This document shows positions 2,158 through 38,978 of a stretch of 38,978 nt of DNA, in pieces. Below the pieces are notes generated by a model. The model did no database searches. It saw only the letters and a list, made by a program, of their open reading frames with translations, and was not told where the DNA came from. The number at the start of each line of letters is the position of its first letter. Position 1 is the first letter of the stretch. A program made the position numbers and the translations under genes. This DNA comes from Phoronis australis (lineage: Eukaryota; Animalia; Phoronida). Location: the NCBI GenBank assembly GCA_002633005.1, contig NMRA01000848.1, positions 82,419-121,396 of the forward strand, written 5' to 3'.

Positions 2158-2163
2158 TTTATT
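2158..2163 (-). promoter_or_regulatory. Candidate polyadenylation signal AATAAA
   Basis: tttatt on the + strand, about 270 nt downstream of the predicted stop; the hexamer is common in AT-rich DNA. Confidence 0.35.
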
Positions 2164-2432: not shown

Positions 2433-2542
2433 TCAAATGGCGCTGATGGCAATGAGCACTAATATCACAGTTGTGTGGAGACGGCACCTAATTTGTGACC
2501 GTGCGCCATCTTGAAACGGCCGAGTGTCGTCGTCAGGCGCAT
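2433..2542 (-). CDS. Terminal coding exon, putative GPI-anchor signal
   Basis: Strong acceptor cacttttttcag; phase 1 continues the TSP1 exon as [36 protein letters not shown]; small-residue triplet DGA, polar spacer, hydrophobic tail ending at the stop. Confidence 0.72.
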
Positions 2543-5500
2543 CTGAAAAAAGTGCAGGTTTATAACCTGTGTCCTTACAGTCTTGATAAACACAGCTCCA
2601 GAATGTGCTGGTAAAGTGAGAAACTCTTCAATCAAGGCCACGTGACAGCTCCAGGCGCTTCAAAATTTAACCTCATTATTACTTCTAACATTAATTTTAG
2701 GTAGCAACTTAACCGTTACACGTCGAAACTGCTCAATGTCTCAAAAGACATTCACTGCAGATTTTGGTAGATCCTCAAACATATGGAAAATTTGTCTCTG
2801 GACCTCTTTCAGTTGCATCTGATGGAGCAGGTCTAAGCATGACGGGATGTCTACTCAAACATTAGTTTTTTAACTGGCTCTCGACGCAGCTTCGCTGTAT
2901 TATTCAATAGAGCACTTTTTGAAATGCACAAAACGGAAATGAAGAATAAATAAAGGTCGTATTTATTAATCAGTCTGATAAAACCCAACACGATCGTTTA
3001 TTGACCCTTGGGAACGACGGTGTGTGGAAGGTGCAAACAAACCTGATGCTCATAGATGGCCATCTTGCTGTTAACTGTTCCCGTCGTCAAATATTAAGCA
3101 TCTACGTTAACAGCAATAGTAGAGAACCATGTCAGGCAGCAGTTCAAAGGAGGTCTAAACCTTCAACCAGACAGACTCTCGTAGAAGTGATACACCTGAT
3201 TTCTTCAATAACTGAGGTCTACTTCATTATTGAAGAAGTATGATTTTAATAAACGCCCTACATTTGAGGCAAATATCCATATTCAGTATTCATGTTAATT
3301 GTTCAAAATGTACTGGAGCCATGAGACATGATTTGCCAGCGCAGTTCACTTTCAATGAAGAACAATATTAAAACATAATTCTAGCATAAGATGATCCATT
3401 ACCATCTTCAATAGCCCTCTAATGTTTTGGACTCTACAGCCACACAACGTTTTATTAGTAACTAGAATAAAGAGTGGTTAGTAGATCTCCATGTGCCCTT
3501 CGATACCATGGCAAAACTCTTAGTCCATGACTTTCTCGATAAATTATCAAACAAGCAGAGGTAATGCCAATCTGTAATGTAAAAAAATTAAAAAGGAATG
3601 CGTATTTTCACCAACACACTCACAGACACGCGATAACGTTAACAATTCCACTGCTTACTATAAACAAATAAATTTAGAAATCAAACATAAAACTGAAATA
3701 GATGGTTGCATTGCAGAACCGATGCTTTCTCCCGTTTTGTGAAAGGTGTTGTGCATTTTAGGGTACTGCAGTGCCCTCCACAGACGAAAGAAGCGAAAAA
3801 GCAAAGCCCGGGAACTAACGTAAGCTCGAAACTTTCCGACATTTTAGCCTAAGCAGCTGGAGATATAGTCAATATTCAGTGAAGCTGCAATTCACTGTTT
3901 CCGTTCAATGAGCAAAACTTCTTACTGCAAGTGTCTCGCGAGGGTCTTGCGACTACGGAACACAGCCCTGCTGACTGGCTGATAATTGGTGATCACCAGG
4001 TCAACAGATTGTCGGCTAGTGACCGAGCACAGTCGAGTAACACCGAGTCGATTGCAAAGGTTAAGAAAACGGATAGTGGCTACTGAAGACTACGGTGAAA
4101 CCTTTGTTGAGGTGCCCGTCAAACTCCAATCACATGTTGTAAATGGTGGTGAGATATCACAGACCGTATCGTACTCAAAGCTGATGAATACTTTGATAGG
4201 TAGGGTGTTGGACACAACAGACACATCAGTTTATCAACGTTGTGGCCTTGAGAAGACTGTCGTAAGATAATTCCGTTCTGCTACGCAAGTGTGAATTTAC
4301 CTGGACATGGGGATTTGTTGCATTCCTTCACATCAGCACTGAGACCAGTACAGTAAGATCCACCAAACTGGGGGCTAGGATTCGTGCACTTTCTCGACCG
4401 GAATGTCACGCCACCTCCGCAAGTGGAACTACAGGAAGACCAATCGCCGTACGCGCTCCATCTGCCATTGACTACAATATGAATGTTCCCAGTTGTACTG
4501 TACATGTTTGCTTGGGCGTAAGCAGCAAGCGGAGTAAACAAGAGCTGGGAACGAAGTAGCGCGCATTACCTGACCTATAGTTTGGTGTTGACATTGTTAA
4601 GTACACGTAATTGTGCAACAATGATTGGTGACGTGTGATAATGTAATACAAGGGGTGGCATTGTTATATAATGTTCTTTTTCTAAATACATGATATAAAA
4701 ATCAAATTGAAGCGTGCCACTGGTTATTTATTTATTTATTTTTTACAGCGCGCTTCATTACTCTCACTGGGTCTCACAGAGGTTCTCCAATTCCACCGTT
4801 TATTGCACTTGTGTATGTTTGGGGCCAAGTTTGTTTATAGCCGGTACTGCTGGATATTCAGCGTTGCATAAATAGCTGACCTTCACGTGTTCATGATTAG
4901 CGCTTCTGTTATGCTTCGTCGCTACTTATAGCATACAACTCTATGTACTTGTGAAATGTTTGTATTTATTTTTACAGTGAGAAACATTAAACTGTCAGCC
5001 GCTGCGGTATTTGTGTAAAGTGTGTGATCCTCCATGTTTTATGAAGTTCTGACCGGTTTGATTTCTCTACAGTTAAAGTTGTCGTTTCAGTTGTATACTT
5101 CGCTGAAAATTTCTCAACTAGGAGTGCATTTAATGAATATTTTTTGCTAATTGGTTGACGTTGGAACGCGTTATAGACTGAACATTTAATGATTGATAAA
5201 ATATACCGGTTTGCGTGTTGACAGAAATGTTATTGAAGAGGTGGCGATTATTAGTTATAGCTGCTATTAAAATGGGTAACTCGTTTGTGATATTCGTTTT
5301 TATATTGGAATAATTGCTGTACTCGGCGAATAGACAGAATCTTGGGTGCATTTTGTTTTTTTTTGTAAATGTTCATAATGTACAATAAATATACATACCC
5401 AAAGAGCGACATTTTGTCTGTACCAAATTGGCGGTCGCTATGTTTCTCGTGACAGCTCTAACCCAGCCACATTGTATTTCTTCTTTACGAAAGCCAAAAT

Positions 5501-8500
5501 GTAAACTGCATATACCCTAGTGGTTTAAGATCAGGTTTTGCATGCCCACTAAATTTTAACAATAATTTTCCCTGTCGAAAACAAAACGATATTTTGTCAT
5601 AGCACCAATAGCACAAGACAGACTTGGAGAGCACCGTCAGTGTTTGGGACAGCGTGTCATCATTTGTACTTCAATTTACAAAGTATTTACATCTGCACGG
5701 AGTGAACCAGTTAGTAGGAGATGAGCTGTTTGTTAAACTCTCACTAAAATTGTTTGAAATGGTTTCACGAGTTTAAATGCGATTGAGTAGGTCACGCCTG
5801 AATGGGCATTATTCTGAGGACGAGGACGCGGGGGCCACTAGAATATGCCACACTCAATGCTAGTCTTAATTGACGGCTATCAATGAGCTCACTTGGTGCC
5901 TTGATCGATTGACCTCCGCCAACACTTCCGCCAGTGCCAACTGCCTCGCAACGGGGTGGCGCATACCCGTAATCACAGTGACAATTCCCTTTGTTATCAC
6001 ATACCTAGAAACAGATGAAGACTGTTAATGGATCTCACATGTACATGCACGACAGGGATTAGTCCTGCTTTGTAGTCATAGACAAGCTGTTAGTGCAATA
6101 ACAGATGCGCAATGTCGAGTAAAGGATTGCCAAGAGTGGTATTGAGAAGTTCCTTGAGGTTGCGTACGTGAATGGAGTCCAAACATTTGGTCTCTGCTCT
6201 GTTCTACCCAGACACAGAAGCATGGGCGGATCCAGAATTTTTATTTAGGGGGTCAGACATTCGCACCACCCAATTGCTAAATGGAATCTGGGAGAGCTTT
6301 AGGGGAGCCATGGCCTCCTTGGCCCCGCTGTAAATCCCCCACTGAGAAGTCCCTCCATTTTCAAAGCGCATCCTTGTTCACTACGTTTCTGACACGTAAT
6401 ATATACAGGTATCACTCCGGCAACTTGAAGTTGTTGAAAATCTGATCATGACATATTTAATCTTCATTTCTGAAATCTAACAAGAGTATTTGGATTCCTG
6501 GCTCCTTTTTGAACCTGGGCAGTTGGGTATTAGTGATTTTAGGGTAAAAATGCTAACACCGCAATTTTCGGTCATTCTTTAGCATGCCATTTGGGAGCAT
6601 GAAGCAATGCAAAAAAAACATGACTTTGCTGAACTTTTCATCTTTTTGAAACCCCAAGCGAATGTGGTTTCTGTAAGCTATACTTTTTCATGTGTCTTGA
6701 GACAGGGTGAAATATGGGGATTTTCTTGACCTAGACCATTCATAATGGTCTTATGATTATACTTTTTATGGGAGGTAAACATGTGACATAAGTGTTACAG
6801 TTGACGTATTTCGACATACAATCCAGGCCAATAATCCATTAGTTTGTGGATACATGAAGATGTACCTTTAACTTGAAATTCGTTTCGGTGGGGTGTATAT
6901 TAAAAATTCACGGGCCCCTGTGAAAACCGAAAATGCGCGTACGTACACCATATTACAAGTTATTGGTCATTTGAAAGCGCAAAGTATTACAATACATTTT
7001 CAACTCTCACCAATTTTTTGGTACTGACAATGATTTATATCGCGCCGATAATAGAAAGTGCCATGTATGCTTATGGAGTTGTCAGCTCCATAGTCGCAAC
7101 GGCCATTGATGCGAAGGGCCGATAGTTCAACAAGGGGCAACTTTTCGGCTCACATCTTGGTTGATTTCTTCAGTGGTGACGGATTGAATGTTGGTATTTT
7201 CGATATCAATACGCCAGCCTTGTATGTGGCTAATGTGACAAATGCACTAAAATCTGATACGCCAATTTGGAAAAACGAACTGGCGGTGAGCGTTTTTCTT
7301 TTCCGCAAACACAAAAAGTTATGCCTTGATTTGTTTTGCTCAAGTAATTCGTATATTTTCCAAGTTCGGGAAAATCGGCCTTTCAAATCAGTAACTGTTC
7401 ACACTTTCAGCCCCTGGGATTAACGAGAATTAATTGTTGAAATAGCAACGTAAGTACATGTAACTGAACGATATTCTATATTCTTCTTACTGGTCGAAGG
7501 TGCGATGCGACGATATCGCCTCTTCTTACTGTCGACCTAGACTGTTATGACGTCCAAAAATAATCCGAAAACAATATTAATGTTTCGATACTCAATGTTG
7601 GACAGAGCATTAAAAAAACTCCAACGAGAACACAACTTCAACGCCATACAGTTACCCCATGTCCGTTGCAATTGCACGGATCAGCAACTGACGCTATGGA
7701 ACGACATCTATGGTTGACGCACATCTTGCAAGAAGGAGAGTTAGACATGACGAGCTCCACATTGAGAAGTTGGTGCAAACGTGTAGAGTAAAGAATTGTA
7801 ATTCATCAAAAGATTTGACACAAAGCAAAACATGTGTTTGGCCAAAAAAGAAACGTTCCTCGCTTACATAACACGTTATTTCAGCGCTTCCTCAACTAAG
7901 TGATATCAAAATGAGGCATTACTATTGATCGTCCAGCGGGAGTTCATATAAAGCTTCTTATGTAAGGATCTGATTACCAACGAGTCCCACTGAGAATTTT
8001 ATTTGTTTCTTGAAGGGAAAGGCTGTTTAATCTTTGGTCAAAAAGGTGAACTGGAACAATTGGTCATTACCTTGCCATGACCACAGCTGTTGCCGTTAAC
8101 AACCATTCCAAAGTCATTATCCGTCTGCGCGTCGTGTGCCCTCACCGAGTGACATCCGACTGATGTCGACTTTGAGTAGCCATTCAACAAAATACCATCA
8201 AGTTTGCTGAACATTGACGTACAATGAAGACGGCCACAACGAACGTCACTAAAAAAGACGAAGTACTGAAAGTATCGCTGTTCTTGTCACCAATTCCCGA
8301 AAAATGAGTCCAACCTGAAAGTTTGGCCTACATGTAGATACCCTTTCAAAAACATATCGTCGCTTTTGTTCCGCAAGCCATACAGTAACTTGGTTGGAGG
8401 TAAATTTATGAACCAAACCCGTGTTGGGGCCCGCGACCACCAAACTTCATTCAAGACTCCATTGGAAAAGTAACCAACCGCATCGGCTGATGTTGAAAAA

Positions 8501-11500
8501 TGGAAACAAGGCATGTGACTCATATTTTTGATTCCAGTCCCGAGTTATGTGTTCTGGTCATACGAGCAGCATACGAGTGCATGCGGCTTTAAACTTACAA
8601 AAGCAAATATCTGAGAGTAATTCTGATCGAGCTGTTAAAAATCTTGTTTAAGTGTCAGAAACCATCTTGCATAATTGTTTTTCCTTAAAGCAGACCGACG
8701 ATCTCTGCCAAGCCACTCCGAGGAAATTTACAATCTAAACATTCGCCATAAGTAAAACCAAGGTAAGACCAATCATCGTGTATAACAGAATTGCAAACAA
8801 CGAGGTTTAAGGGTGCTTCTAAAGTGACCAATTTTCCGAAAATGCATCATTTTTATATTTTCCAAATTAACATGTATATACAATTTGATAATCTATTGAT
8901 TTATTACACTGCACATTTCCATTTCCTTCTCTGCTGGCAATACAGAATCATTCGCTAAGATCACACAACAAAAATTGCCTACCAATAACATCGCCCTTCT
9001 AACGCATGTTAATCTCAGGTACAAAATGATTTATGAAAAAGGGAAGAATTTTGGCGACTGGACGCCTTGTCATACAACATGCATAGCTTCAAACCACTTT
9101 TAATTAACTGAAGTACTTGGTGTGCAATAACAAAACCTGTAGAGGCAGGACATTTTTGCACACAATGGCTGCTTACATCATAGTTCTATCAAAAAATAGA
9201 ATGCTTTCTCCATATCAACACATATAGCAAGCAATACTTGTTTAACTTTTATTTTGTTCTGAATTATTGACGTGATCGCATAAAGCTGATCTAGACATGA
9301 TGTGTGTAAATTACATTTTCTGAACTGACACTTGAGGTGCGAATCAGTTCAATTCCCTAGACGAACTACACTGAACATGGCCACATCCTTGGTTTAATAT
9401 CAAGGAGATGCATAACCAGACTACATAGAACATAATCATGCTCAGTTTAGTCTGGGTATAATTCTCCTTGATATAACACTAATGGCATGATCATGTTCAA
9501 TGTAGTCTGGTTATGCATTTCCTTGATATTAAACCAAGGATGTGGCCATGTTCAGAATTATATCCAGACTAAACTGAGCATGATTATGTTCTTGGTGTAA
9601 TATCAAGGAGATATATTACAGAACTACACTGAACATGATCATTTCATAGTTGTATTGTCAAGAGAATTTGCAACCAAATTACACCGGTCCTGATCATTTC
9701 ATGGGTGTTATTTAAAGGTGACTTATAACCAGACTACATTGAAAACGATCATTTCCTCGGCACAATATTACAGACAATTATAACCAGTGTACATTGAGTA
9801 CGGTCATTTCAAAGGTGTAACACCAAGGAAATTTATGATCAGATTACACTGAACATGATCATTTCCTTGGTGTAACACCAATAAGATTTATAAGCGGACT
9901 CCACTGAATGTGGTCATTCCATAGGTTTCATATCAATGAGAGTAACAACCAGATTACACTGAACACGGTCACTTCATTGGTGTAACATCAATGAGATTCA
10001 TAAACAGACTACAGTGAATGTGATCATGTCCTGGGTATAATTCGAGATTTAAATACTAAATAACGAGGTTACGCAGGACGTGGTCTTAAATTTGTTTGAT
10101 ATTAAGGATATTGAAAACCAGACAACACTGTTTTACAACGTTGAGAAACTTGCGAACTGAAAGAGACAACACAGTTCTATAGAACGTCCATCGGCATTAC
10201 TGGCTTATTGAAATATGGAGGAGCCATCCATCCAGGTAGCTTAAAACACGTGCAAAAGTACCCAGGTGAGTAGGCTAGACATTAATTTCAGGTTGTAATG
10301 ACATTTCGACATCAGTCAACGTTATGTATCACTTACTTGCTATCGCACGGCAGGAACGAGCGACTGTTGAAGTTGTACCCACAATTTCCTCTCGAATCAC
10401 CGTGTCTGTTGAGGCTAAAACACGTGACGTTCACGCGGGACGCATTTCCACCCAGCAGTGAACACGCGGCAAAGCTTGCTCCACACACACCATTGAAACA
10501 GTGGGCCTACAGTGGTAATTTTTCGTGATTATTTGGAAATCATCTCAATCATGCGTCCACACGTGCGGATCGTTTTCGAAATAACGAGTTTCCAAGATAA
10601 TCAGCCTTTCAGAAAATGTTTTATGGTTGCAGTTACACTAACGTAGACCTTTATACATTATTTTCCTTAGACTTGTAAATCTACTACTGACTCGAGTTGT
10701 CGTGTGTTCACATTGGATTTCATGCTGCTACTGAACCCATGCATCATCTAAGTTGTGAGTGACCCGCGATGGTCAGTGTTAGTCCTTCTAGCGAGTCCCC
10801 GGTCTCAAAAATGTCAAAAGGTATATCACTAAATAATTCCATCAGGTTAGAATACAAATTGATAGTTCCTTATTTTCACAACCAGAAAAACTTAATACCT
10901 TGACAATTTCGTCTCCTATCAGCAACCATCTTCCGAAGTTATTAGACACTAGGTCGCGTGCTGATGAGGCTGTTCCAAATTTGGAACAGCCTTACCGTCA
11001 CCAAGCCACCGTATCTCTAATAACTTCGGAAGATGGCTGCTGGTAAGTGCAGAAACTGTCACGGTACTATGCTTTTCTGGTTGTGAAAATAAGAAATTAT
11101 CAAATCAAAAGGTTTAGTTTCCAATTGATCGTGCACGGTCGACAGATTGTGTTACGATATCCTGCTGAACTTTTTTTACTGTCAATACAACGAAAGTACT
11201 GCTGTTACACGAGCAGACATTTTGGGACCGACGAGCATCGTGATAGTGAACTGGTACAAATCCTGATATCCAGAGTTCGAGTGGTGGTGAAACTTCCTAA
11301 TTCTCTCAACATTCGTCATTGATGAAATGGTACAATGACAGCCATATCAAAGGAAAGATCGATGCTGTCAAAGTTGATGTTATCAATCAAAACGTGTGCA
11401 GGAAGCGCAAATCATCATGCACGTGCGTTTGAACACAAGGGTACAATAAAAAGGTCGGCTTTCACATGTGACATATATGTTTTTGATCAGTTTCACATTG

Positions 11501-32500: not shown

Positions 32501-35500
32501 ATCAGACGATACAATTCCTTTGTGAAAGTGTGGCATCTAGGAAAAATTGCTTTAAATGTAACTTTGGAACAAATATCCGAGTCTCACTGGTTAATGTGAA
32601 GACGGCTAGGGATAAACACACATGTAAAACCAAAAGCATTATCCTTGCTGGAAATCAGTTGGTCCACAAAAATGCATCAGTGAAAACATGGTGATAATGA
32701 TCAACTTATTTTTGATGAAAAGTTCAAAATACTTTTTAAAGTTCATAGTCTATTCAAGACATATTACAAAGCAAAACATCCACAATGCAACCGTTACATA
32801 CTGAGAAGAACATGGGATAAAAGAGTTTCTCCTTGAGTCATGCCCACAGTCGCCCGTGGCGTCGCCATTCCTGTTTCTAACGAAGCACCTATTTGCAACC
32901 GACGCCGACGACCCCCAGAGAAACTGACAACGTTCCACATTTGTGTTGCATTCGCCGTTGAAGCAAAAAGCCTGGACAGAATAACGATTAGATATCAAAG
33001 TGCGCCCACCGTCACCAGCCGTTTAGTAAACATTACGTAAACCGAAGCGTAGGTATTCCTGAGCATAGATCAGTGGATTCTTATAATTTAAACAAAAAGC
33101 AGAAAGTTTCAAGCAGGCTATCGTGGCTGCACGTCAATATCAAACGCACACGCTAGAACGGAAATTTCGTGGTATGTATTAGCTGCACCCATCTTAGGTA
33201 AGTAGATATCGTTCTTGAATTGACATATTTTATGAAATTGGCTATTCCTGGTTGAGATATTTTATCTGAAGTTGGAATATAAAATCATATGCATAATTCC
33301 AAATTTGCTCGATCAATCACGCGATTGTGCAAACGGCCCTGTTTAAATGGATTATTGTTACAAGAATTCTTTATCCATCAAAAAACAATTCCATACGGTA
33401 AAGAGAAGACATTTTCTTCATTACGTTAAAGATTCACATACCACGTTCTCAACACAGACAATACCATTCATTTTGTAACGATCCTCGGGACAGGCACTAG
33501 ATCGTCCGCTACAATATTCCGCTAGGTCGCATACACCTGTAGCGGGTCTGCACATTGCACCTTGGTCTTTGTACTAAAATAATTCAAAAAGCAGATTTTA
33601 GAAGCTCCTTAATTTTGTTTCAAACTGTTAGAGCTTGTATGTTAGCTCGATTGCATCACAGTAGGGTCGCTGAAAAGAAGAGCCGATGGCTCATATCCGC
33701 CCGCCCCATATCCCAATAACATTTCAGAATACCTCGTATAAGCTCGAACTGTGCAAGTCGCGCTTTAGTCATATTGCAAGTAATGTGATCTTCAAATTGG
33801 AGGATTGGCCATAACACTGCAATATGCACATGCGCAGTTAACACTCCATTTTGAGCACAGTTTGGGGCACACAAAAGATTTTTAAGCCACTGGTGAATTT
33901 AGATCCAATTAAAAGTTGGTGCCTGCTTGGTTGGCTGGGCATTTTAAGCTTTTTTCTTCCTTTTAAATTCTATGAATGCCATTTGCCTCATTTCTGAATC
34001 TGTTGCGAGTGACAGATTGTCAGCTGTTTACCCCATGAACGATTTTTTCGATCAGTCGTGGCTTTTCTTAAACCTTTACTGCTCGCAAGCAGGAAGTAAG
34101 ATTTGTAAAAAAAAAATCTGCTGGTCCACTGCCACTTTTCATCTGGTTTGTGTAATGAATAAAATTTGGCAGACTAAATGCACCGTCTCCCAGTGCGTAG
34201 TAATCCTAATCAAATGTTGGCTTTGGACAAAATTTGATGATCTGACCTTTTGTTCGTTTTTCAAGTAGCCTGCTGCACTTCTGAAAGTCGTAAAAGGTAG
34301 ACAACTATACTTTGGAATCATTTTCAATAGACTTTGTTCAAGGTTTTTGAAGTCTTTGGTCCAATATAGTGATCGTAATTTCAGGTGTTGCAATTCTTGT
34401 GGAACAGGCTGTTGGAGTTGAACCGATCTGGTTTTTCAAGCCCAAAATAAGTTGCGATTAGGTAAATAACCGACGTTTTACGTATGCCCTTGCTATAGTC
34501 AGGCCACAACCTTCGTCGAAACATGCATATGTGTATTAATAGAGAACCGGAGGACAACCCCCACCCCGAGTCAGCCAAACTGAAGACGATTACTGAGCAG
34601 ATTAAGCCTTGAGACTTTAATCGGGTCATTTCTGTTGGATTTTTCCTTTAATAGGTGTCAGATAACTTAAATGGGCATTTAATCATGCTTCCCAGAAAAC
34701 GTGACATAAATAGATCTTACAGCAAGTTTTCACCTTAACTGGTAGTTTTTTCAAGGTCCCGTGTTATCGACATTTTCTTCCCTTCCTTTCAAAACGATCC
34801 AAATATGACAACCCCTTTAGTTATATCCTTCCCAATCTTGACAGAAAGTCCGCGTAATTATTCCTTTCCCCTCCATCATCCGCATCAAACTATTAATCTG
34901 TCAAAGATACACTTGGGAGGGCAGATACAACAAGTAAAAAAATCTCAGATGTGAGAAAAGGCCATAATCAACACAGTTTGTTGTAAAGTCACCAGGCCGC
35001 GGGACCTTCTTGAAATTTACCAGCAAGCTGATTCAAATGTTTGGTCACTTGTAACCTTCAAGGTCTCACTGGACGGTAATTTTCGTGTTCGACTGGTGAC
35101 GAAATAAATACTAAATTATTGTGTATTTTGGCATTCGTAACATGATTATATATGAAATTAAGGTTTTGGTTACATTTGGCACTACACCTTAAATTCCCCA
35201 AGGTCTTGTATCCAATTTGGAATGAAATTTTAAAAAACGATGTTTCGGAAAACTTAAACTTAAAGTGATGCAAGTTCCAGCTCTGTATCGTTTGCCCGTA
35301 AACAGCAAAACAAATGTACTCCTATGGCAATCGGAAAGAGCAGAGGCAAAATTGGCGGTGACGGGATGAGGATAAATGGTTGTGTCGATTGGGTGTTTTA
35401 GAGCTTAAGTACAGAGATTTTGATGGTGTGGGGGCGGCAGAATACGACGAAGGCGAAGTTTCAGTACTCAGTAACTTTATTGTGTCGTCTCATTTTAAGG

Positions 35501-38478
35501 AAAAACGAGTTCTGTTTCACACGCTCCATCCCAGCACTCTGGAAACTCCCAACACACTGTTTATGAGAAGTGAAGCTAGGTGGATAGTTGTCTCACTTGC
35601 CTATACATGAGATTACTCCATATCGTGAAGATTGTGTGTTTTTGCTAAGTTCGGAAAACTTCACACGAGCTATTTACCTGACACGTGTCATTGTTACAGC
35701 ATTCACCATGGGCGCAGCTAGCGCCCTTCACCAACTGGCAGGTATACGGATGGCAGCACTTGTTCGTGCATTTGTTCGGTAAACCACAGTCGCATTCTTC
35801 ACCTGCATCGAGTTTTCCATTCATGCACGTCCCTGATGCAACCTGGATGGATTTTAAACATGTACATGTAAACACCAGCCAGAATTAGGTTCACGTGTGC
35901 AGGGATCAGGCAAGTAAGAGGGTATTTCTATGCGAATTTATTTTCTTCTGAACACGTTAATAATCCGGTAATTCGCTCTGCCAACGAAAAATAACCCAAA
36001 ATAATACGTGTACTATTGGAAGCGTTTTTCAACTAACTGTATCATAACAAAAACAAACCGCACGACGATTGCAGTTATCTCCGCACGTGACAACATCCTC
36101 CAAAGATTTGCACTCCTGCTTCAGGCAAATCTGCAACCAAAAGTGTACATAGAATCTGGTAGGCTAAAAACAAAGGTCAAGTTTTTGTAACCGATAGTTC
36201 ATCTACCCTAATACGCTGCATAAGTTTGATTGTTGCATGACGTCTGGTGCATTGTTGAACAATAACGACGTGGCGAGTGATAATGCGACGTCATTGTTGT
36301 TATGCAACGTATAACTTTTATGCGCCTGGGCCTAACTTAATAAGTTGTAAACCATCTCAAATCTGTTGCATGCTTGATGCTATTTTGTTATGAGACACAA
36401 AGCCCTGCCTTGGTGATCATATTCCAAGCTGGTGCCGTCAGCTGATCATAAACTAATAGTTCGTGTCTTCTCAACACTTTCGCAGTACGCCACAAATTAG
36501 ATAATATGGTTTGCAGTGGGGTTAACGACAGTGGCGCATAAAAATCCATTGGATAAATAAATGCTGTTCAGATATAGTCCGATTTCCCCTAAAACATCTA
36601 ACAAACGTTTTACCCAGAAATCCACGTTAGTGAATATCGCTGGCGTTAGGCAGCCCTAGACGCTTGCAGTTAAACACAATACATGTATACAGATCAGCCA
36701 AACCATTTTGTAGCTGTCCTACAGAACATTCCCACCTTGCCATCCCCACACACTGTGCCATCTGGTGCCATGCCTCGGTCGAAGTTTATACCCTCGCCAT
36801 AGTAAAACACGGTCTTTGCGCACTGGGCTGGGGACGTCGCACTTTGGTGGTAACTGGTGTTATGGAGACCGTCGTCCAACCACGTGATATCTTCTGGATT
36901 ACCCAAGTAACAGTGGAGCCGACCACAGCCAACATTTCTATGAATAACACAACACGCAAAGTGTCTGTTGTAGTGTCATAATACTGTTAGACATCGTTGT
37001 GTTATTACAACATTGTAATAGATGATGAAATGTGTCAAAAGATCTCAGTATTCAAGGGAAGACCTACGAGGTTTTACTGGTAGAGGCAACCCCCATTAAC
37101 GGAATAGATGGGAATGATTTTAGGGCGACAAGCATTACATGGTTTAGGCCTCAAACCATCCAAAAAGGAAAAGCTGATCAAAAACTTGACTATTTGAAGA
37201 AACCCTTTGCTTGATCTGTTAAATCGTAGAGGTAATTTTTTTCCAAAATGTTACTAGAATTACCTTCAAAGTTTACCCCGCGTTGCATGCATTGTGAAAC
37301 CGTTTTAGAATTTTAATTTTAGGGACGTCTGCTTCCTAATTCTGCAAACCCATGCCATAGTTGACTCAGAACAGTATAGTTCTTGCTTTAGCATCATACG
37401 GCCTCATTTGTCAACTCAAAACAAACCTAAATCACTGGAATTCATTGTTGTGTTTCACAAAAAGCCACAAAACGACTTCGGTTTCACTTAGAGACCCACT
37501 TAGTAATCATGAGATGACTTTTTGCGTATGAAAAAAACAATTCCTGAATGAAGTATTAAGGTAGTTCCTGTGTAAAAAGTTAAATAGTAGAAAAGATGCT
37601 GTGCTTCGCATCCACGTTTCAATAATACTCAATAACATCATCAGGAGTTTAGGGTGCACAAACTGTGATATTAAACAACCAATTGCTTTTCTCACCTATG
37701 TACATATTTATCCCATTTGCGTACTGACTACAATTCTGATGATGACATTGATTGTTGTTTTTACTATTCGACTTTCTACTGACCATCTGGCCAAGAACTG
37801 CCATGCTCTTTTATGAAATGGGCGCTTAGTTCTGCGTTCCCAACATGACTTTATTGACATCGCTTTTCCTCGACTTACTCTAGATGGCACGCAATCACAG
37901 TGTCCTCCAGAAAATCATGACCACAATCGCCAAAATGGCCGCCGAGGGCATTCAGTTGAAAGTTCTCGTGACACGCAACTGACGCTGGACCATAGATCTG
38001 CTGACAGGCACCTTTGACAGTGTTACACTTTCCATTGTAGCAGTAGGACTGAAAACACAGCGGCACTAAAGTTAAACATGCACGAACTGAACTTATCCAA
38101 GGGTACATAAGCAAGATATCTATCAACGTTGATGATAAGGCTGGTGCTGCTGCTGCCGCCGCTGCAGTACTTGTTCCTGCTTGTGCTGCCGCCGCCACCT
38201 CCGCTGCTGTACGTGTTGGCGGTGCTGCTACTTTCGCCGCTTCCGCTGATGCTGCTACAATCACTGCGGTACTTGTTGGTGGTGTTGCTGCCGCCGCCGT
38301 CTCCGCTGATGCTGATGCGTAAACTGCAAAAATAATGACCTACATTTTCTCCTTGAAAGGAGCACCTTGTCCCGTTCGGCTTGTGAAGATCGGCTGGACA
38401 GAATTCAGTTTCTCCTGTACAGTATTCGGGAGTGTCGCAGAATCCTCTTGACACTCGGCAAACTGATCCAGCTGTTAT
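2433..38478 (-). CDS. 5'-partial multi-exon gene: tandem ADAM-type (disintegrin + cysteine-rich +/- EGF) x5, TSP1, putative GPI signal; 28 exons, 3906 nt, 1301 aa in window
   Basis: Manual splicing: every intron is GT-AG, exon phases are compatible, and the summed length is divisible by 3 and ends at TGA 2433-2435. Motifs CxNGxxxxGExCDCG, CRxxxxxCDxxExC, CGxLxC, GxxCGxxK and VCDNxGxCxC..GYAPPxC are those of ADAM family ancillary domains. Confidence 0.9.
4301..4471 (-). CDS. Thrombospondin type-1 repeat exon
   Basis: [56 protein letters not shown], canonical TSP1 pattern; acceptor atattgtag, donor gtaaat; 171 nt, phase 1-1. Confidence 0.93.
5893..6004 (-). CDS. Module E EGF-like exon
   Basis: [37 protein letters not shown]; acceptor ctgtttctag, donor gtgagc; 112 nt, phase 0-1. 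Confidence 0.92.
6221..6344. mobile_element. Possible short MITE with imperfect CAGTGGCGGAT-like termini
   Basis: Starts catgggcggatccag and ends taaatcccccactg; similar termini near 13600-13616 (agatctgccactg) and 38794 (cataggcggatttag). Confidence 0.35.
7656..7724 (-). CDS. Module E exon C3 (end of ACR, start of EGF-like)
   Basis: [23 protein letters not shown]; acceptor ttcttgcaag, donor gtaact; 69 nt, phase 0-0. Confidence 0.88.
8071..8248 (-). CDS. Module E exon C2
   Basis: [59 protein letters not shown]; acceptor cttttttag, donor gtaatg; 178 nt, phase 2-0. Confidence 0.92.
9361..10040. repeat. Diverged 55-bp minisatellite with an inverted internal block (9427-9555)
   Basis: The gatc/ggtc anchor recurs at 9637, 9692, 9747, 9802, 9857, 9912, 9967 and 10022 (period 55); consensus approx. 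ccagactacactgaacatgatcatttccttggtgtaatatcaaggagatttataa. Confidence 0.9.
10337..10506 (-). CDS. Module E exon C1
   Basis: [56 protein letters not shown]; acceptor ccactgtag, donor gtaagt; 170 nt, phase 0-2. Confidence 0.9.
10859..11103. repeat. About 245-bp foldback palindrome (MITE-like)
   Basis: Perfect 26-bp centre aggctgttccaaatttggaacagcct (10967-10992); arms ccatcttccgaagttattaga/tctaataacttcggaagatgg and cttattttcacaaccagaaaa/ttttctggttgtgaaaataag. Confidence 0.88.
12121..12252 (-). CDS. Module E exon D2
   Basis: [44 protein letters not shown]; acceptor atttgtcag, donor gtaagc; 132 nt, phase 0-0. Confidence 0.92.
13273..13335 (+). mobile_element. tRNA-like Pol III head (SINE or tRNA pseudogene fragment)
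   Basis: A-box-like tggtgaagtgg (13277-13287) and B-box-like gagttcgagtc (13320-13330) at tRNA spacing; I could not fold an intact cloverleaf. Confidence 0.45.
13729..14010 (+). mobile_element. Penelope-like retroelement remnant (GIY-YIG endonuclease C-terminal half), pseudogenised
   Basis: [34 protein letters not shown]/fs/[50 protein letters not shown]; resembles the PLE pattern YIGETKQ..RM..H..DSAV..HL...H....W..RG.KEA....P.LN.GGGLR, recalled from memory. Confidence 0.8.
14432..14593 (-). CDS. Module E exon D1
   Basis: [54 protein letters not shown]; acceptor ttctttcgtag, donor gtggtt; 162 nt, phase 0-0. Confidence 0.9.
14736..14807 (-). CDS. Module D exon C3 (EGF cysteines lost)
   Basis: [24 protein letters not shown]; acceptor tcttgttag, donor gtgagt; 72 nt, phase 0-0. 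Confidence 0.87.
15471..15636 (-). other. Candidate extra or alternative C2-type exon (diverged duplicate; mutually exclusive exon or relic)
   Basis: Open [55 protein letters not shown] between aatag and gttagt; 166 nt with the same phase 2-0 and the same CGxLx...C...TVCxxK layout as the C2 exons. The acceptor is weak and one Cys is Ser. Confidence 0.45.
15682..15865 (-). CDS. Module D exon C2
   Basis: [61 protein letters not shown]; acceptor atattttag, donor gtacgc; 184 nt, phase 2-0. Confidence 0.9.
16786..16955 (-). CDS. Module D exon C1
   Basis: [56 protein letters not shown]; acceptor gccttacag, donor gtaagt; 170 nt, phase 0-2. Confidence 0.92.
17744..17881 (-). CDS. Module D exon D2
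   Basis: [46 protein letters not shown]; acceptor gtgttcaag, donor gtaagc; 138 nt, phase 0-0. Confidence 0.9.
19043..19207 (-). CDS. Module D exon D1
   Basis: [55 protein letters not shown]; acceptor tcttctcag, donor gtaaat; 165 nt, phase 0-0. Confidence 0.92.
19907..19951 (-). CDS. Module C exon C3 (short, no EGF)
   Basis: [15 protein letters not shown]; acceptor gttcccatag, donor gtaagc; 45 nt, phase 0-0. Confidence 0.82.
20161..20907 (-). mobile_element. Internally deleted Academ-like DNA transposon with TIRs, TTT flanks and a Cys-rich C-terminal coding remnant
   Basis: Left end tagctgggcagatag...tgatgcaagcacca matches the reverse complement of the right end tcgctgggaagataa...tgatacaagcacca; ttt on both flanks; 20810-20650 minus reads PADWG*...W...[34 protein letters not shown]. 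Confidence 0.65.
21051..21213 (-). CDS. Module C exon C2
   Basis: [54 protein letters not shown]; acceptor cttcacag, donor gtagg; 163 nt, phase 2-0. Confidence 0.92.
21943..22115 (-). CDS. Module C exon C1
   Basis: [57 protein letters not shown]; acceptor gccttgtag, donor gtatgt; 173 nt, phase 0-2. Confidence 0.92.
24407..24541 (-). CDS. Module C exon D2
   Basis: [45 protein letters not shown]; acceptor tgtttctag, donor gtatgt; 135 nt, phase 0-0. Confidence 0.92.
24798..24946 (-). CDS. Module C exon D1
   Basis: [49 protein letters not shown]; acceptor ttctgtcaag, donor gtattt; 149 nt, phase 1-0. Confidence 0.9.
26219..26345 (+). mobile_element. Second Penelope-like GIY-YIG remnant
   Basis: [19 protein letters not shown]/fs/[19 protein letters not shown] resembles the PLE SAI.DH....NH.IDW....I....R.IKE pattern. 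Confidence 0.65.
26504..26615 (-). CDS. Module B EGF-like exon
   Basis: [37 protein letters not shown], the typical ADAM VCNN..CHC..GWAPP.C...G.GGS.DSG pattern; acceptor attctcag, donor gtaagt; 112 nt, phase 0-1. Confidence 0.92.
27475..27540 (-). CDS. Module B exon C3 (end of ACR, start of EGF-like)
   Basis: [22 protein letters not shown]; acceptor ttgttccgcag, donor gtaagt; 66 nt, phase 0-0. Confidence 0.88.
28762..28945 (-). CDS. Module B exon C2
   Basis: [61 protein letters not shown]; acceptor ttccaatag, donor gttaag; 184 nt, phase 2-0. Confidence 0.9.
30740..31610. repeat. Old ~380-bp tandem duplication (about 30740-31122 and 31231-31610)
   Basis: Collinear shared anchors tttctgatttagat, tatctacgaa.atcga, ttgcag.ctga, acgatttttg.ct.tct.aaataa, ctcacaatgcaaatg.caa, attgctcatt. 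Confidence 0.8.
31086..31250. repeat. Recent 55-bp x3 tandem repeat
   Basis: attaagtcataaaaccaagtaaaaacgtattgctcattgttgatttctgatttag at 31086, 31141 and 31196; one substitution in copy 3. Confidence 0.95.
32802..32971 (-). CDS. Module B exon C1
   Basis: [56 protein letters not shown]; acceptor tctgtccag, donor gtatgt; 170 nt, phase 0-2. Confidence 0.92.
33442..33573 (-). CDS. Module B exon D2
   Basis: [44 protein letters not shown]; acceptor tattttag, donor gtatgt; 132 nt, phase 0-0. Confidence 0.92.
35678..35842 (-). CDS. Module B exon D1 (disintegrin, first half)
   Basis: [55 protein letters not shown]; acceptor ccatccag, donor gtaaat; 165 nt, phase 0-0. Confidence 0.9.
36059..36130 (-). 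CDS. Module A exon C3 (end of ACR plus residual EGF start)
   Basis: [24 protein letters not shown]; acceptor ttggttgcag, donor gtttgt; 72 nt, phase 0-0; not in ORF track. Confidence 0.8.
36736..36937 (-). CDS. Module A exon C2 (cysteine-rich, includes hypervariable region)
   Basis: [16 protein letters not shown]...[30 protein letters not shown]; acceptor attcatag, donor gtggg; 202 nt, phase 2-0. Confidence 0.9.
37879..38048 (-). CDS. Module A exon C1 (ADAM cysteine-rich)
   Basis: [56 protein letters not shown]; acceptor gttttcag, donor gtaag; 170 nt, phase 0-2. Confidence 0.92.
38137..38318. repeat. GC-rich GCT/GCC/GGT trinucleotide low-complexity repeat in intron
   Basis: gctgctgctgccgccgctgcagtacttgtt ... 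gctgccgccgcc.. tccgctgatgctg recurring. Confidence 0.8.
38344..38478 (-). CDS. Module A exon D2 (disintegrin, second half)
   Basis: [45 protein letters not shown]; acceptor tctcttttag, donor gtagg; 135 nt, phase 0-0. Confidence 0.9.
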
Positions 38479-38978
38479 CTAAAAGAGACAATTATTCAAC
38501 GTGCGATTATCCATTTGTAAGCATTTGGTGCCAAAATAACTATTGGACAGTCAAAGCAAGGAAATGAACTCAATCTTATAATGTTGCAAATCCAATGGTA
38601 TTTTGTGAATCCGACGTCAACTTAACAATTTCATTTTATCCATTTTTATCATTTATCGCATACACAATTCTGTTTCCTAAATCCAATGGTGCTTTATAAA
38701 GTCGATTATGTTTCGTTTTTGCATATTCAACCAGTTCAGTGGATTTTGTTGTATCACTTCAACTGCGGTTCGTTGATGCAATGTCAACTGATGCATAGGC
38801 GGATTTAGGAGGGACCCCTTTGGTAGCCGCAAAAATAAAGCGCCAAAACCGTGGGGAAATCTTGAATTTGTTAATTGCAATGAACATTATACGACCGAAA
38901 AAAGATTTGACATTGTGTGGAGATTTAGTTTGTGTGTGCGTGTGGGGGAAAGCGGGGGGGGCGAGGTGGGGCTCGGAT

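Follow-up and report, generated by a model that had tools for sequence, protein, structure and literature searches.

The question raised by this locus is whether the disintegrin (D) and cysteine-rich (C) exons that follow one another along it belong to several separate ADAM genes or to a single gene whose product carries them in series. Based on our findings, we propose that the window, by which we mean the whole stretch of Phoronis australis DNA that was analysed (38,978 nucleotides), holds the 3' part of a single minus-strand gene, whose one mRNA would encode a multivalent surface-binding array of D/C units; we put the probability of this explanation as a whole at roughly 0.6. To our knowledge, such a poly-arm layout has not been described for any ADAM relative.

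In the ADAM or P-III arm, the disintegrin loop and the hypervariable region are thought to choose the partners, and there is one catalytic head per rigid D/C arm. If our proposal is right, five long-diverged arms in series would be a natural test of what the arm does without the protease; multivalent integrin/receptor binding, spacing and decoy action could be tested with such a protein. The gene would also show how new extracellular architectures can arise when exon blocks are duplicated and the phases of their introns re-tuned. Were it unexpressed or split into smaller transcripts, it would be one more lineage-specific ADAM expansion.

Exon chain and domain content

Rebuilt independently from the sequence, the gene model consists of 28 minus-strand exons running from 38478 to 2433 (Table 1), which join without a stop into an open frame of 3,945 nt, that is, 1,314 codons and a TGA at 2435-2433; all 27 introns are GT-AG, and the window takes in 36 kb at the 3' end of a single animal gene. 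The modules follow one another in the order A(D2-C1-C2-C3), B(D1-D2-C1-C2-C3-EGF), C(D1-D2-C1-C2-C3), D(D1-D2-C1-C2-C3), E(D1-D2-C1-C2-C3-EGF), and after them come TSP1 and the tail. The initial annotation had claimed 28 exons in a single stop-free frame with this module order, and our rebuild reproduces both the chain and the four junctions between modules that it had given (36059>35842, 26504>24946, 19907>19207 and 14736>14593). Intron positions and phases are identical in all modules; since the splice sites were picked partly by phase fit, the agreement of phases is not fully independent evidence. Exon GC is 0.516, compared with 0.36-0.43 in 26 of the 27 introns. The splicing of all 28 exons into one mRNA is what this gene model predicts. 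The chain begins at A_D2; the start codon, the signal peptide and the D1 exon of module A are outside the window, and nothing within 38479-38978 codes for that first disintegrin exon, which must be located beyond the window.

When Pfam was run on 25 candidate exon ORFs, Disintegrin (PF00200) was matched in nine (four N-halves and five C-halves), ADAM_CR (PF08516) in seven and TSP_1 in one (49.4 bits). The ADAM_CR matches are all five C1 exons, whose scores of 30.4-53 bits are above the curated cut-off of 29.4, and two C2 exons below it. The other eight ORFs have no Pfam match alone: C2 of A, C and E, C3 of A and E, both EGF exons and the tail. With D_C1 and B_D1 as queries, the closest solved sequences overall are VAP1, ecarin, ADAM22, bothropasin and catrocollastatin, the best in the PDB being bothropasin/catrocollastatin for B_D1 (4.2e-10) and VAP1 for D_C1 (5.5e-8), which also matched ADAM22. 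Repeated Disintegrin and ADAM_CR domains with one TSP_1 are thus found by Pfam as had been expected, but the two EGF domains of the same expectation have no Pfam match. The EGF call is based instead on the signature CxCxxGYxPPxC...GGSV, which is common to 22 of 122 relatives; a PDB search with E_EGF matched only the EGF domain of betacellulin, not significantly (E 0.7). Modules B and E carry this EGF-like/stalk signature, and what comes after it is another module (B) or TSP1 (E). At the other end of the chain, only the last 13 of the 1,314 residues form a hydrophobic stretch, the stop codon comes directly after it, and the predicted chain has no layout of EGF, then TM helix, then cytoplasmic tail. 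The last 30 residues are compatible with the pattern of a GPI signal, in which small residues at the cleavage site precede a polar spacer and a terminal hydrophobic stretch without cytoplasmic residues, but their hydrophobic part is short; read from this pattern, the tail may be a candidate GPI-type C-terminal end.

A search of the whole window in six frames found no HExxHxxGxxH motif. None of 140 other minus-strand ORFs (at least 45 aa) and none of 146 plus-strand ORFs scored above any Pfam cut-off. Reprolysin and Pep_M12B_propep had no match in the 25+140+146 ORFs of the window, the 5' end of the gene being outside it, and ADAM_spacer1 and ADAMTS_CR were absent from all ORFs tested there. 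The inter-module introns measure 216 (A>B), 1,557 (B>C), 699 (C>D) and 142 nt (D>E), and three of the four hold no ATG-ORF of more than 14 codons. The earlier statement that no protease, signal or TM exon lies between the modules therefore holds as far as it is testable, given the missing zinc motif, the missing Pfam matches and introns of 142-1,557 nt. It had also been argued that these exons do not simply make up a row of independent ADAM genes; we agree, as only disintegrin/cysteine-rich exons are found between the modules and two of the introns separating them are as short as 142 and 216 nt.

Table 1. Positions of exons and candidate polyadenylation signals in the window, with the evidence for each
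Feature	Position	Strand	Evidence and remarks
A_D2, disintegrin C-half, module A	38344..38478	-	14-residue loop; Pfam Disintegrin 27 bits, profile 48-75; first exon seen
A_C1, ADAM_CR first exon, module A	37879..38048	-	Pfam ADAM_CR 31.5 bits
A_C2, ADAM_CR second exon, 29-residue variable segment	36736..36937	-	homologous position/phase in five modules; no Pfam match of its own
A_C3, end of cysteine-rich domain and first two EGF cysteines	36059..36130	-	exon model
B_D1, disintegrin N-half, module B (GEECDCG)	35678..35842	-	Pfam Disintegrin 41.2 bits; acceptor weak, -1.2 bits
B_D2, disintegrin C-half, module B	33442..33573	-	14-residue loop; Pfam Disintegrin 34.1 bits
B_C1, ADAM_CR first exon	32802..32971	-	Pfam ADAM_CR 42 bits
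B_C2, ADAM_CR second exon, 24-residue variable segment	28762..28945	-	Pfam ADAM_CR 19.6 bits, below cut-off
B_C3, end of cysteine-rich domain and EGF-like start	27475..27540	-	exon model
B_EGF, EGF-like end and GGSV stalk motif, ends in phase 1	26504..26615	-	16-residue signature; donor 7.8 bits
C_D1, disintegrin N-half, module C, starts in phase 1 like the B_EGF end	24798..24946	-	Pfam Disintegrin 30.4 bits
C_D2, disintegrin C-half, module C	24407..24541	-	14-residue loop; Pfam 31.8 bits
C_C1, ADAM_CR first exon	21943..22115	-	Pfam ADAM_CR 48.4 bits
C_C2, ADAM_CR second exon, 20-residue variable segment	21051..21213	-	exon model
C_C3, 15-codon end of cysteine-rich domain (VCVNATC...)	19907..19951	-	donor 7.3 bits, only good donor in open frame
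D_D1, disintegrin N-half, module D	19043..19207	-	Pfam Disintegrin 42.2 bits; acceptor 10.1 bits, phase 0
D_D2, disintegrin C-half, module D	17744..17881	-	14-residue loop; Pfam 36.9 bits
D_C1, ADAM_CR first exon	16786..16955	-	Pfam ADAM_CR 53 bits
D_C2, ADAM_CR second exon, 26-residue variable segment	15682..15865	-	Pfam ADAM_CR 17.2 bits, below cut-off
D_C3, end of cysteine-rich domain and cysteine-free linker	14736..14807	-	donor 8.6 bits
E_D1, disintegrin N-half, module E, 142 nt past D_C3	14432..14593	-	Pfam Disintegrin 39.7 bits; only acceptor in open frame, 9.4 bits, phase 0
E_D2, disintegrin C-half, module E	12121..12252	-	14-residue loop; Pfam 33.7 bits
E_C1, ADAM_CR first exon	10337..10506	-	Pfam ADAM_CR 30.4 bits
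E_C2, ADAM_CR second exon, 22-residue variable segment	8071..8248	-	exon model
E_C3, end of cysteine-rich domain and EGF-like start	7656..7724	-	exon model
E_EGF, EGF-like end and GGSV stalk motif, ends in phase 1	5893..6004	-	67% identical to B_EGF
TSP1, thrombospondin type 1 repeat, phase 1-1 exon	4301..4510	-	Pfam TSP_1 49.4 bits, cut-off 21.6
Tail exon, acidic/polar stretch, then 13 hydrophobic residues and TGA	2433..2542	-	only strongly hydrophobic 13-mer in 1,314 aa
AATAAA, candidate polyadenylation signal	2158..2163	-	sequence; 269 nt past the stop
AATAAA within the 216-nt A>B intron	35937..35942	-	about 90 nt past the A_C3 read-through stop; possible alternative end after module A

Divergence and conservation of the modules

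At the protein level the modules are only 31-47% identical to one another, a distance at which synonymous sites are saturated, yet the cysteine framework is retained in every one of them; cysteine counts in the complete modules are even (34, 28, 28 and 34), and no stop or frameshift occurs across the 1,314 codons. The loop CRxxxxxCDxxExC, located by regular expression, is present in all five modules; in PMC3153164 it is the consensus for integrin-binding disintegrin loops. Module E also has RxxxxxxDLPEY, to be compared with the alpha9beta1 motif RxxxxxxDLPEF given in that paper (PMC3153164). A Ca-site-like motif, CxNGxxExGExCDCG, is found in all four D1 exons. The segment at the position of the hypervariable region, by contrast with the framework, differs from module to module in both sequence and length (20-29 residues); PMC4885070 describes this ADAM region as a candidate exosite facing the catalytic site, on a rigid D/C/EGF arm. 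Because the cysteine framework and the CRxxxxxCDxxExC loop have been kept at such low identity, the modules are ancient duplicates under constraint, neither an assembly artefact nor decaying copies.

Two explanations that do without a functional array can be weighed against these observations. The tandem arrangement could be an artefact of assembly, in which copies of one ADAM gene were collapsed or wrongly multiplied, and the only two-module relatives that we found do carry nearly identical copies, a pattern typical of artefacts. The copies in the window differ far more than that, and neither their exon sets nor the lengths of their introns (142-3,856 nt) agree; there are no long direct repeats between them, and Tandem Repeats Finder reports four small arrays only, so that we give this explanation practically no weight. 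Alternatively, the modules could be pseudo-exons, incomplete duplicates of ADAM sequence produced by unequal crossing-over and surviving as an unexpressed relic with no product. It would suit such a relic that a search of a library of 1.84 billion representatives gave no protein of at least 54% identity, that word-based protein searches with exons D_C1 and B_D1 gave no match, and that the gene is not visibly annotated in the sources searched; an ESM Atlas search with D_C1 also gave no usable match. With neutral decay over a distance of this size, however, each module should by now contain several stops (an estimate, not computed), whereas the frame is free of stops and frameshifts and the framework cysteines, the motifs and all 27 GT-AG introns are kept. 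We consider the relic improbable.

Identical exon positions and phases, together with phase-matched module starts, make serial multiplication of a D/C(/EGF) cassette the natural reading of how the array may have arisen. This origin had been put forward in the initial annotation, and the shared exon structure and the retention of every cysteine at 31-47% identity speak for it, but the module tree does not add to them. In a tree of the five modules and seven ADAM relatives, none of the nine inner branches is well supported and the five modules group together at only 32/54 support. A tree this poorly supported does not bear on a single origin of the modules, and it does not distinguish internal duplication, the probable reading, from fusion of different ADAM lineages.

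Relation to ADAM proteases and the proposed binding array

In ADAMs and P-III snake venom metalloproteinases, a propeptide and a protease domain are followed by just one D and one C in each chain; the C-terminal part of ADAMs consists of a TM helix and a cytoplasmic tail. With both of these groups (the ADAMs being of the ADAM22/ADAM9 type), the window gene shares Disintegrin, ADAM_CR, the CRxxxxxCDxxExC loop, the variable segment at the hypervariable position and the EGF-like end with its CxCxxGYxPPxC..GGSV signature. Unlike them, it has five serial D/C units, no protease in 36 kb and a TSP1 repeat, and unlike ADAMs it has a 13-residue hydrophobic end with no cytoplasmic part. The spliced modules align end to end with the uninterrupted D-C-EGF of ordinary ADAMs, so the joins within modules are complete: module B matches L003 at 41.5% over 289 aa (E 2e-65, query residues 1-275), and module E matches L017 at 36% over 293 aa.

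One Disintegrin with one ADAM_CR is found in 28 of 30 relatives scanned, and the metagenome ORFs have one Disintegrin in 7/7 and one ADAM_CR in 6/7; the window gene, with five D/C units in one open frame, departs from this one-D-one-C ADAM rule. Three or more modules occur in none of 122 detectable relatives, and two modules in only two of them, as near-identical copies; a second module is absent from all 80 metagenome loci. Our searches found no ortholog with the same module layout, and the literature search found no paper on such a multi-module architecture or on protease-less invertebrate ADAM arrays. The architecture had been called undescribed, and for three or more modules this stands, but two predicted two-module proteins exist. 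One, from Priapulus caudatus (XP_014666722.1, P0009, 1,729 aa), is predicted to carry two Disintegrin and two ADAM_CR stretches in the same chain, and differs from the seen part of the window gene in having a propeptide, Reprolysin and a TM-like segment. The other, a partial protein of the bat Cnephaeus nilssonii (KAK1343037.1, P0001, 867 aa), also has two Disintegrin and two ADAM_CR; it is without a protease domain, like the window, and ends in a stray KH fragment. Since their copies are 99.4% identical over 342 aa (P0009) and 96.3% over 136 aa (P0001), compared with 31-47% in the window, the two proteins reflect recent duplication, the merging of neighbouring paralogues or repeats in the assembly. 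Both stop at two modules, which have not diverged, and both are without a TSP1 repeat.

ADAMTS and ADAMTS-like proteins also recall the window gene, in that they have a disintegrin-type region and a TSP1 repeat and are secreted, non-TM proteins. According to PMC4885070, however, the disintegrin-like domain of ADAMTS is structurally an ADAM_CR fold, and these proteins also contain a TSP1 in central position, a cysteine-rich domain of the ADAMTS type and a spacer; the window gene has no spacer or ADAMTS_CR match, and its TSP1 comes after a complete ADAM D-C-EGF unit. A true ADAM D/C unit with a downstream TSP1 is seen in another eukaryote, in the metagenome transcript-like L013 (Reprolysin-Disintegrin-ADAM_CR-cEGF-CUB-TSP_1), although there the D/C unit is single and behind a protease, and its cEGF and CUB are both absent from the window gene.

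These comparisons bear on the possibility, which we consider doubtful but serious, that the locus encodes a genuine ADAM protease, with signal peptide, propeptide and reprolysin upstream and with the D/C modules serving as a long stalk or exosite ladder that positions or selects substrates for the catalytic domain. The gene is cut at its 5' end, before the missing D1 exon of module A, and Reprolysin precedes the D/C unit in all seven intronless metagenome ORFs and is present in 26 of 30 library matches scanned (the exceptions being P0001, P0033, P0034 and P0051). The Priapulus protein places its two D/C units after propeptide-Reprolysin, and a hypervariable region that faces the catalytic site as a proposed exosite, as described in PMC4885070, would fit a role in substrate choice. 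Against this, the window has neither the zinc motif nor a Reprolysin or propeptide match; moreover, in a C-shaped M-D-C unit the catalytic site is faced by the first D/C arm only, and substrate positioning leaves four more arms, the TSP1 and the non-TM tail unexplained.

We return to the binding array as the preferred reading. The product would be 1,314 residues long or longer, free of a metalloprotease domain as far as it is seen, and would consist of five tandem ADAM-type D/C arms, two of them ending in an EGF-like/stalk segment, one TSP1 and a short hydrophobic C-terminal tail. Assuming export, the chain may be tethered to the cell surface through a GPI anchor, or be released, and could act as a multivalent binder: each arm would bring its own disintegrin loop fitting the integrin-ligand consensus and its own variable segment where the ADAM hypervariable exosite sits. 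With a loop and a variable segment for every arm, one molecule could engage several integrins, surface partners or matrix partners simultaneously. A more specific version is tentative, and we would not bet on it: a protease-free, GPI-anchored chain with at least five different arms and a TSP1, ancient and selectively maintained, which might be a multivalent integrin/receptor organiser or decoy, for example in gamete or cell-cell recognition.

Junctions between modules and possible alternative transcripts

Each module begins in the phase in which the preceding module ends, phase 1 if the last exon there is an EGF exon and phase 0 if it is C3. At C>D and D>E there is just one strong donor (7.3 and 8.6 bits) and one strong acceptor (10.1 and 9.4 bits), all in phase 0. 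At B>C the top donor is in phase 1, as are both usable acceptors, 24946 (4.3) and 25039 (4.8). The A>B junction is weak: its donors score 3.6 and 3.2 bits, and the only phase-0 acceptor, at -1.2 bits, is below all 23 training acceptors (minimum 4.0). If the A>B intron is retained, the frame stops at 36031-36029, with AATAAA about 90 nt later.

It is in view of these sites that the modules may not all be in one mRNA, either through a split at A>B with a short module A product or through skipping or alternative splicing of modules, giving proteins of fewer than five arms; we regard this as unlikely. The A>B sites are the poorest of the gene, and the read-through stop and the AATAAA (35942-35937) could end a transcript there, although AATAAA would occur by chance in 216 AT-rich bases about once in six cases (an estimate). 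B_D1, moreover, brings neither a start codon nor a signal sequence, and since its frame stays open no further than 35887, it must be spliced to an upstream exon. Module D and the pair B+C, both running from phase 0 to phase 0, could be skipped in frame. C_D1 has the second phase-1 acceptor at 25039, and the ORF upstream of C_D1 has 60 open codons starting with an ATG at 25127, but open extensions equalling this length are seen at other exons too. A single upstream exon could not use all of the modules as alternative acceptors, because the first exon of module C starts in phase 1 and those of B, D and E in phase 0.

Dscam-like mutually exclusive cassettes were considered separately and rejected; the first exons of the modules are not of one phase, and the cassettes are unequal in exon number. 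Of additional note, A_C3 may run 21 nt further, to 36038, which would add VCFCYDT; both donors are in phase 0.

Organization of the predicted gene

From our analysis, the window is best explained by a single predicted gene that grew through successive duplications of a block of exons from an ADAM gene, namely those for the disintegrin (D) and cysteine-rich (C) domains and, in some blocks, an EGF-like segment, with intron phases kept compatible. The window is AT-rich (GC 0.36-0.44 in 2-kb steps) and is patterned like an animal gene: its exons are short, and its introns measure 0.1-4 kb. On its minus strand, cysteine-rich stop-to-stop ORFs repeat in a fixed order. With exon borders set from sequence alone, 27 introns, all GT-AG, separate exons that splice into a frame open for 3,945 nt (1,314 codons) and closed by TGA. 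The initial annotation had proposed a multi-disintegrin, ADAM-derived surface protein of 28 exons; our separately built exon model reproduced that count and recovered all four of the inter-module junctions it had named. Exon positions and phases are identical across the modules, the end phases being 0 for D1, 0 for D2, 2 for C1, 0 for C2, 0 for C3 and 1 for EGF.

Features of the window (window coordinates; modules in transcription order; D1 and D2, N- and C-half disintegrin exons; C1 to C3, cysteine-rich-domain exons; EGF, EGF-like/stalk exon)
Feature	Coordinates	Description
Gene model, minus strand	38478-2433	28 exons
Module A		D2-C1-C2-C3
Junction A>B	36059>35842	intron of 216 nt
Module B		D1-D2-C1-C2-C3-EGF
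Junction B>C	26504>24946	intron of 1,557 nt
Module C		D1-D2-C1-C2-C3
Junction C>D	19907>19207	intron of 699 nt
Module D		D1-D2-C1-C2-C3
Junction D>E	14736>14593	intron of 142 nt
Module E		D1-D2-C1-C2-C3-EGF
After module E		TSP1 exon, then tail exon
Repeat within intron A_D2>A_C1 (38343-38049)	38204-38327	GC-rich 60-bp tandem repeat, 2.1 copies, 75% matches
Repeat within 3,856-nt intron B_C1>B_C2	31086-31252	55-bp tandem repeat, 3.0 copies, 99% matches; very young array
Open stretch 5' of the C_D1 acceptor	25127-24947	60 codons, from ATG (MLLDRTRH...)
Inverted repeat, intron E_C1>E_C2	10859-11103	two 106-nt arms, 81% complementary, with a 33-nt spacer; the two strands carry similar ORFs
Tandem array, intron E_C1>E_C2	9554-10027	55-bp unit, 8.6 copies, 67% matches
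Nested inverted repeats adjoining this array (coordinates of the region holding both)	9365-10027	e.g. arms 9371-9441 / 9485-9555, 96% complementary
Array downstream of the gene 3' end	1553-1638	GT/GC-rich, microsatellite-like, period 40, 2.2 copies

Exon GC is 0.516, against 0.36-0.43 in introns, with the exception of one intron at 0.53. This 295-nt intron, between D2 and C1 of module A, owes its high GC to the 60-bp repeat that it bears. Because of the repeat, two minus-strand frames run through the intron without a stop, giving low-complexity ORFs of 151 and 154 aa that are rich in Ala, Ser and Gly; retaining the intron would cause a frameshift, as 295 is not divisible by three. The repeats at 9365-10027 look like a foldback or MITE-like insertion.

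In Pfam searches of 25 ORFs, Disintegrin matched nine, four of them N-terminal halves and five C-terminal. ADAM_CR matched seven: the five C1 exons scored 30.4-53 bits against a cut-off of 29.4, and two C2 exons fell under it. TSP_1 matched a single ORF, at 49.4 bits against its cut-off of 21.6. The other eight ORFs, which had no Pfam match, comprise three C2 and two C3 exons, the two EGF exons and the tail. Spliced module B aligned with an ADAM-related metagenome locus, L003, at 41.5% identity over 289 aa (E 2e-65, query residues 1-275), and spliced module E with another, L017, at 36% over 293 aa. The spliced modules are thus colinear with the unbroken D-C-EGF regions of ordinary ADAM relatives, and therefore no exon is missing within them. 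The nearest solved structures are P-III venom proteinases and ADAM22.

Linkage of the modules

The inter-module introns, of 142-1,557 nt, leave no room for a propeptide together with a catalytic domain and hold neither other Pfam domains nor the zinc motif; the array is therefore no cluster of complete ADAM genes, as the initial annotation had argued. HExxHxxGxxH is absent from all six frames of the whole window, and in three inter-module introns out of four no ATG-initiated ORF exceeds 14 codons. None of the 140 other minus-strand ORFs of at least 45 aa reaches a Pfam cut-off, four giving weak, unrelated sub-threshold matches. On the plus strand, a scan of 146 of the 154 ORFs of at least 49 aa (eight of exactly 49 aa being left out) gave one sub-threshold chance match only.

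Splice-site strength was scored for every frame-compatible GT and AG with donor and acceptor matrices trained on 23 introns outside the inter-module junctions. At C>D just one donor (7.3 bits) and one acceptor (10.1 bits) are good, and the same holds at D>E (8.6 and 9.4 bits), all in phase 0. At B>C the top donor (7.8 bits) is in phase 1, as are both usable acceptors of the module C D1 exon, 24946 (4.3 bits) and 25039 (4.8 bits). The first exon of module C starts in phase 1 and those of B, D and E in phase 0, each equal to the end phase of the preceding module, which favours serial splicing. Were the modules alternative partners of one upstream exon, a shared start phase would be expected, and the phase 1 of C against the phase 0 of B, D and E disfavours that arrangement. 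By these predicted splice sites, B, C, D, E, TSP1 and the tail appear well linked. The open stretch 5' of the C_D1 acceptor, which includes the second phase-1 acceptor, may be due to chance, or module C may have there an alternative first exon or a longer version of its own.

A>B is the weak link. Its donors score 3.6 bits (36059) and 3.2 bits (36038; use of this one would add VCFCYDT, with two further EGF-type cysteines), and its sole phase-0 acceptor, at -1.2 bits, falls under all training acceptors (minimum 4.0). Retention of the intron would bring in a stop at 36031-36029, and an AATAAA lies at 35942-35937; there is perhaps a short alternative product ending after module A. The D1 exon of module B has no start codon or signal sequence, its frame being open only to 35887, and must therefore be joined to something upstream. 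We consider A and B probably linked.

Divergence, binding features and predicted product

Protein identity among modules is 31-47% (highest B-E at 47%, lowest A-D at 31%), and the cysteine framework is kept, the complete modules, B to E in order, having 34, 28, 28 and 34 cysteines. A string of pseudogenes is disfavoured, because copies this divergent are yet without stop or frameshift; the same observation speaks against an assembly artefact. The EGF exons of B and E are 67% identical and share CxCxxG[YWF]xPPxC followed by GGS[VI] within 12 residues. Since this signature is shared with 22 of the 122 relatives described below, modules B and E extend to the last extracellular segment of ordinary ADAMs.

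CxNGxxExGExCDCG occurs in all four D1 exons and CRxxxxxCDxxExC in all five modules. The latter is given, in a paper on ADAMs, as the consensus for their integrin-binding disintegrin loops, and the alpha9beta1 motif as RxxxxxxDLPEF (PMC3153164), against which module E carries a 12-residue sequence of the form RxxxxxxDLPEY. The inter-cysteine segment of C2, which by position we assign as the putative equivalent of the ADAM hypervariable region, is 29, 24, 20, 26 and 22 residues long from A to E, with sequences unrelated between modules. According to a further source (PMC4885070), D, C and EGF together form a rigid arm, the hypervariable region is a candidate exosite, and the rule is one M, one D and one C.

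At the 3' end, the TSP1 exon (phase 1-1) follows E_EGF (phase 1) after 1,382 nt, and the last exon encodes a 26-residue C-terminal sequence before the TGA, with AATAAA 269 nt 3' of the stop. The tail contains the sole strongly hydrophobic 13-mer of the product. A GPI signal would fit this end, where small residues and a polar spacer lead to a hydrophobic stretch that closes the chain; the stretch is short, however. Apart from the microsatellite-like array, nothing is recognisable in 1-2157.

The predicted product would be a chain of five or more different D/C arms that continues into a TSP1 repeat and a lipid-anchor-like end. Each arm keeps the loop consensus associated with integrin binding and has a variable segment of its own; a function as a multivalent binder at the surface, suggested by these parts, would therefore be the most economical mechanism. 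The main rival is an upstream protease domain, with the array as its stalk or exosite ladder. The gene model is 5'-truncated: beyond the window would lie the first disintegrin exon of module A, a signal peptide and, if there is one, a protease domain.

Relatives and precedent

The C1 exon of module D, used as the HMMER query against 1.84 billion representative proteins, gave 122 matches at E <=0.001. The best identity is 53%, and thus the product of this gene is absent from the protein library. One stretch matched in 120 relatives and two in 2; none of the 122 had three or more. Pfam was run on 30 (all 27 of at least 1,000 aa, plus P0001, P0013 and P0033) and found one Disintegrin and one ADAM_CR in 28, two of each in P0001 and P0009, and Reprolysin in 26, the exceptions being P0001, P0033, P0034 and P0051. 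P0001 is a partial hypothetical protein of the bat Cnephaeus nilssonii (KAK1343037.1), whose two modules are 96.3% identical over 136 aa. P0009, an uncharacterised predicted ADAM of Priapulus caudatus (XP_014666722.1), has a doubled D-C-EGF region (residues 456-797 and 823-1164), the copies being 99.4% identical over 342 aa. Copies so similar point away from a diverged array and towards recent duplication, merging of neighbours or repeats in the assembly; the P0009 region would have been doubled either by a very recent duplication within the gene or by such an assembly repeat.

Lineage-specific domain shuffling is common in this protein class. In the literature searched for tandem, multiple, repeated or duplicated disintegrin domains, a scope outside which most subscription journals fall, the five-module layout was not found. 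The layout is real as a feature of a 5'-truncated predicted gene model and, as far as searched, undescribed; within this literature and the 122 relatives, the earlier statement that no described protein with this architecture was known holds, qualified by the two predicted two-module proteins.

A scan of metagenome contigs with a D1 alignment matched 592 stretches and gave 133 relatives, of which 80 were kept. A second GE.CDCG-type motif was found in none of these 80 loci, most of them short, versus four such motifs in the window. Seven intronless metagenome ORFs each have one Reprolysin and one Disintegrin, and six of them one ADAM_CR. One of the seven, the transcript-like L013 (2-2314), has a further unusual ADAM layout, Reprolysin-Disintegrin-ADAM_CR-cEGF x3-CUB-TSP_1; given its C-terminal TSP_1, the combination of ADAM and TSP1 is not unique in itself. 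On five contigs of 41-156 kb (L027, L031, L041, L044 and L071), only the disintegrin part matched, over about 95-122 aa at 40-45% identity to module B or C, and the ADAM_CR part was absent from these matches; they are possibly prokaryotic disintegrin-domain proteins. In the closely related intronless ORFs L003:1736-6367 and L008:2614-7020 (1,544 and 1,469 aa), an ordinary M-D-C unit precedes ~900 residues that match nothing in Pfam.
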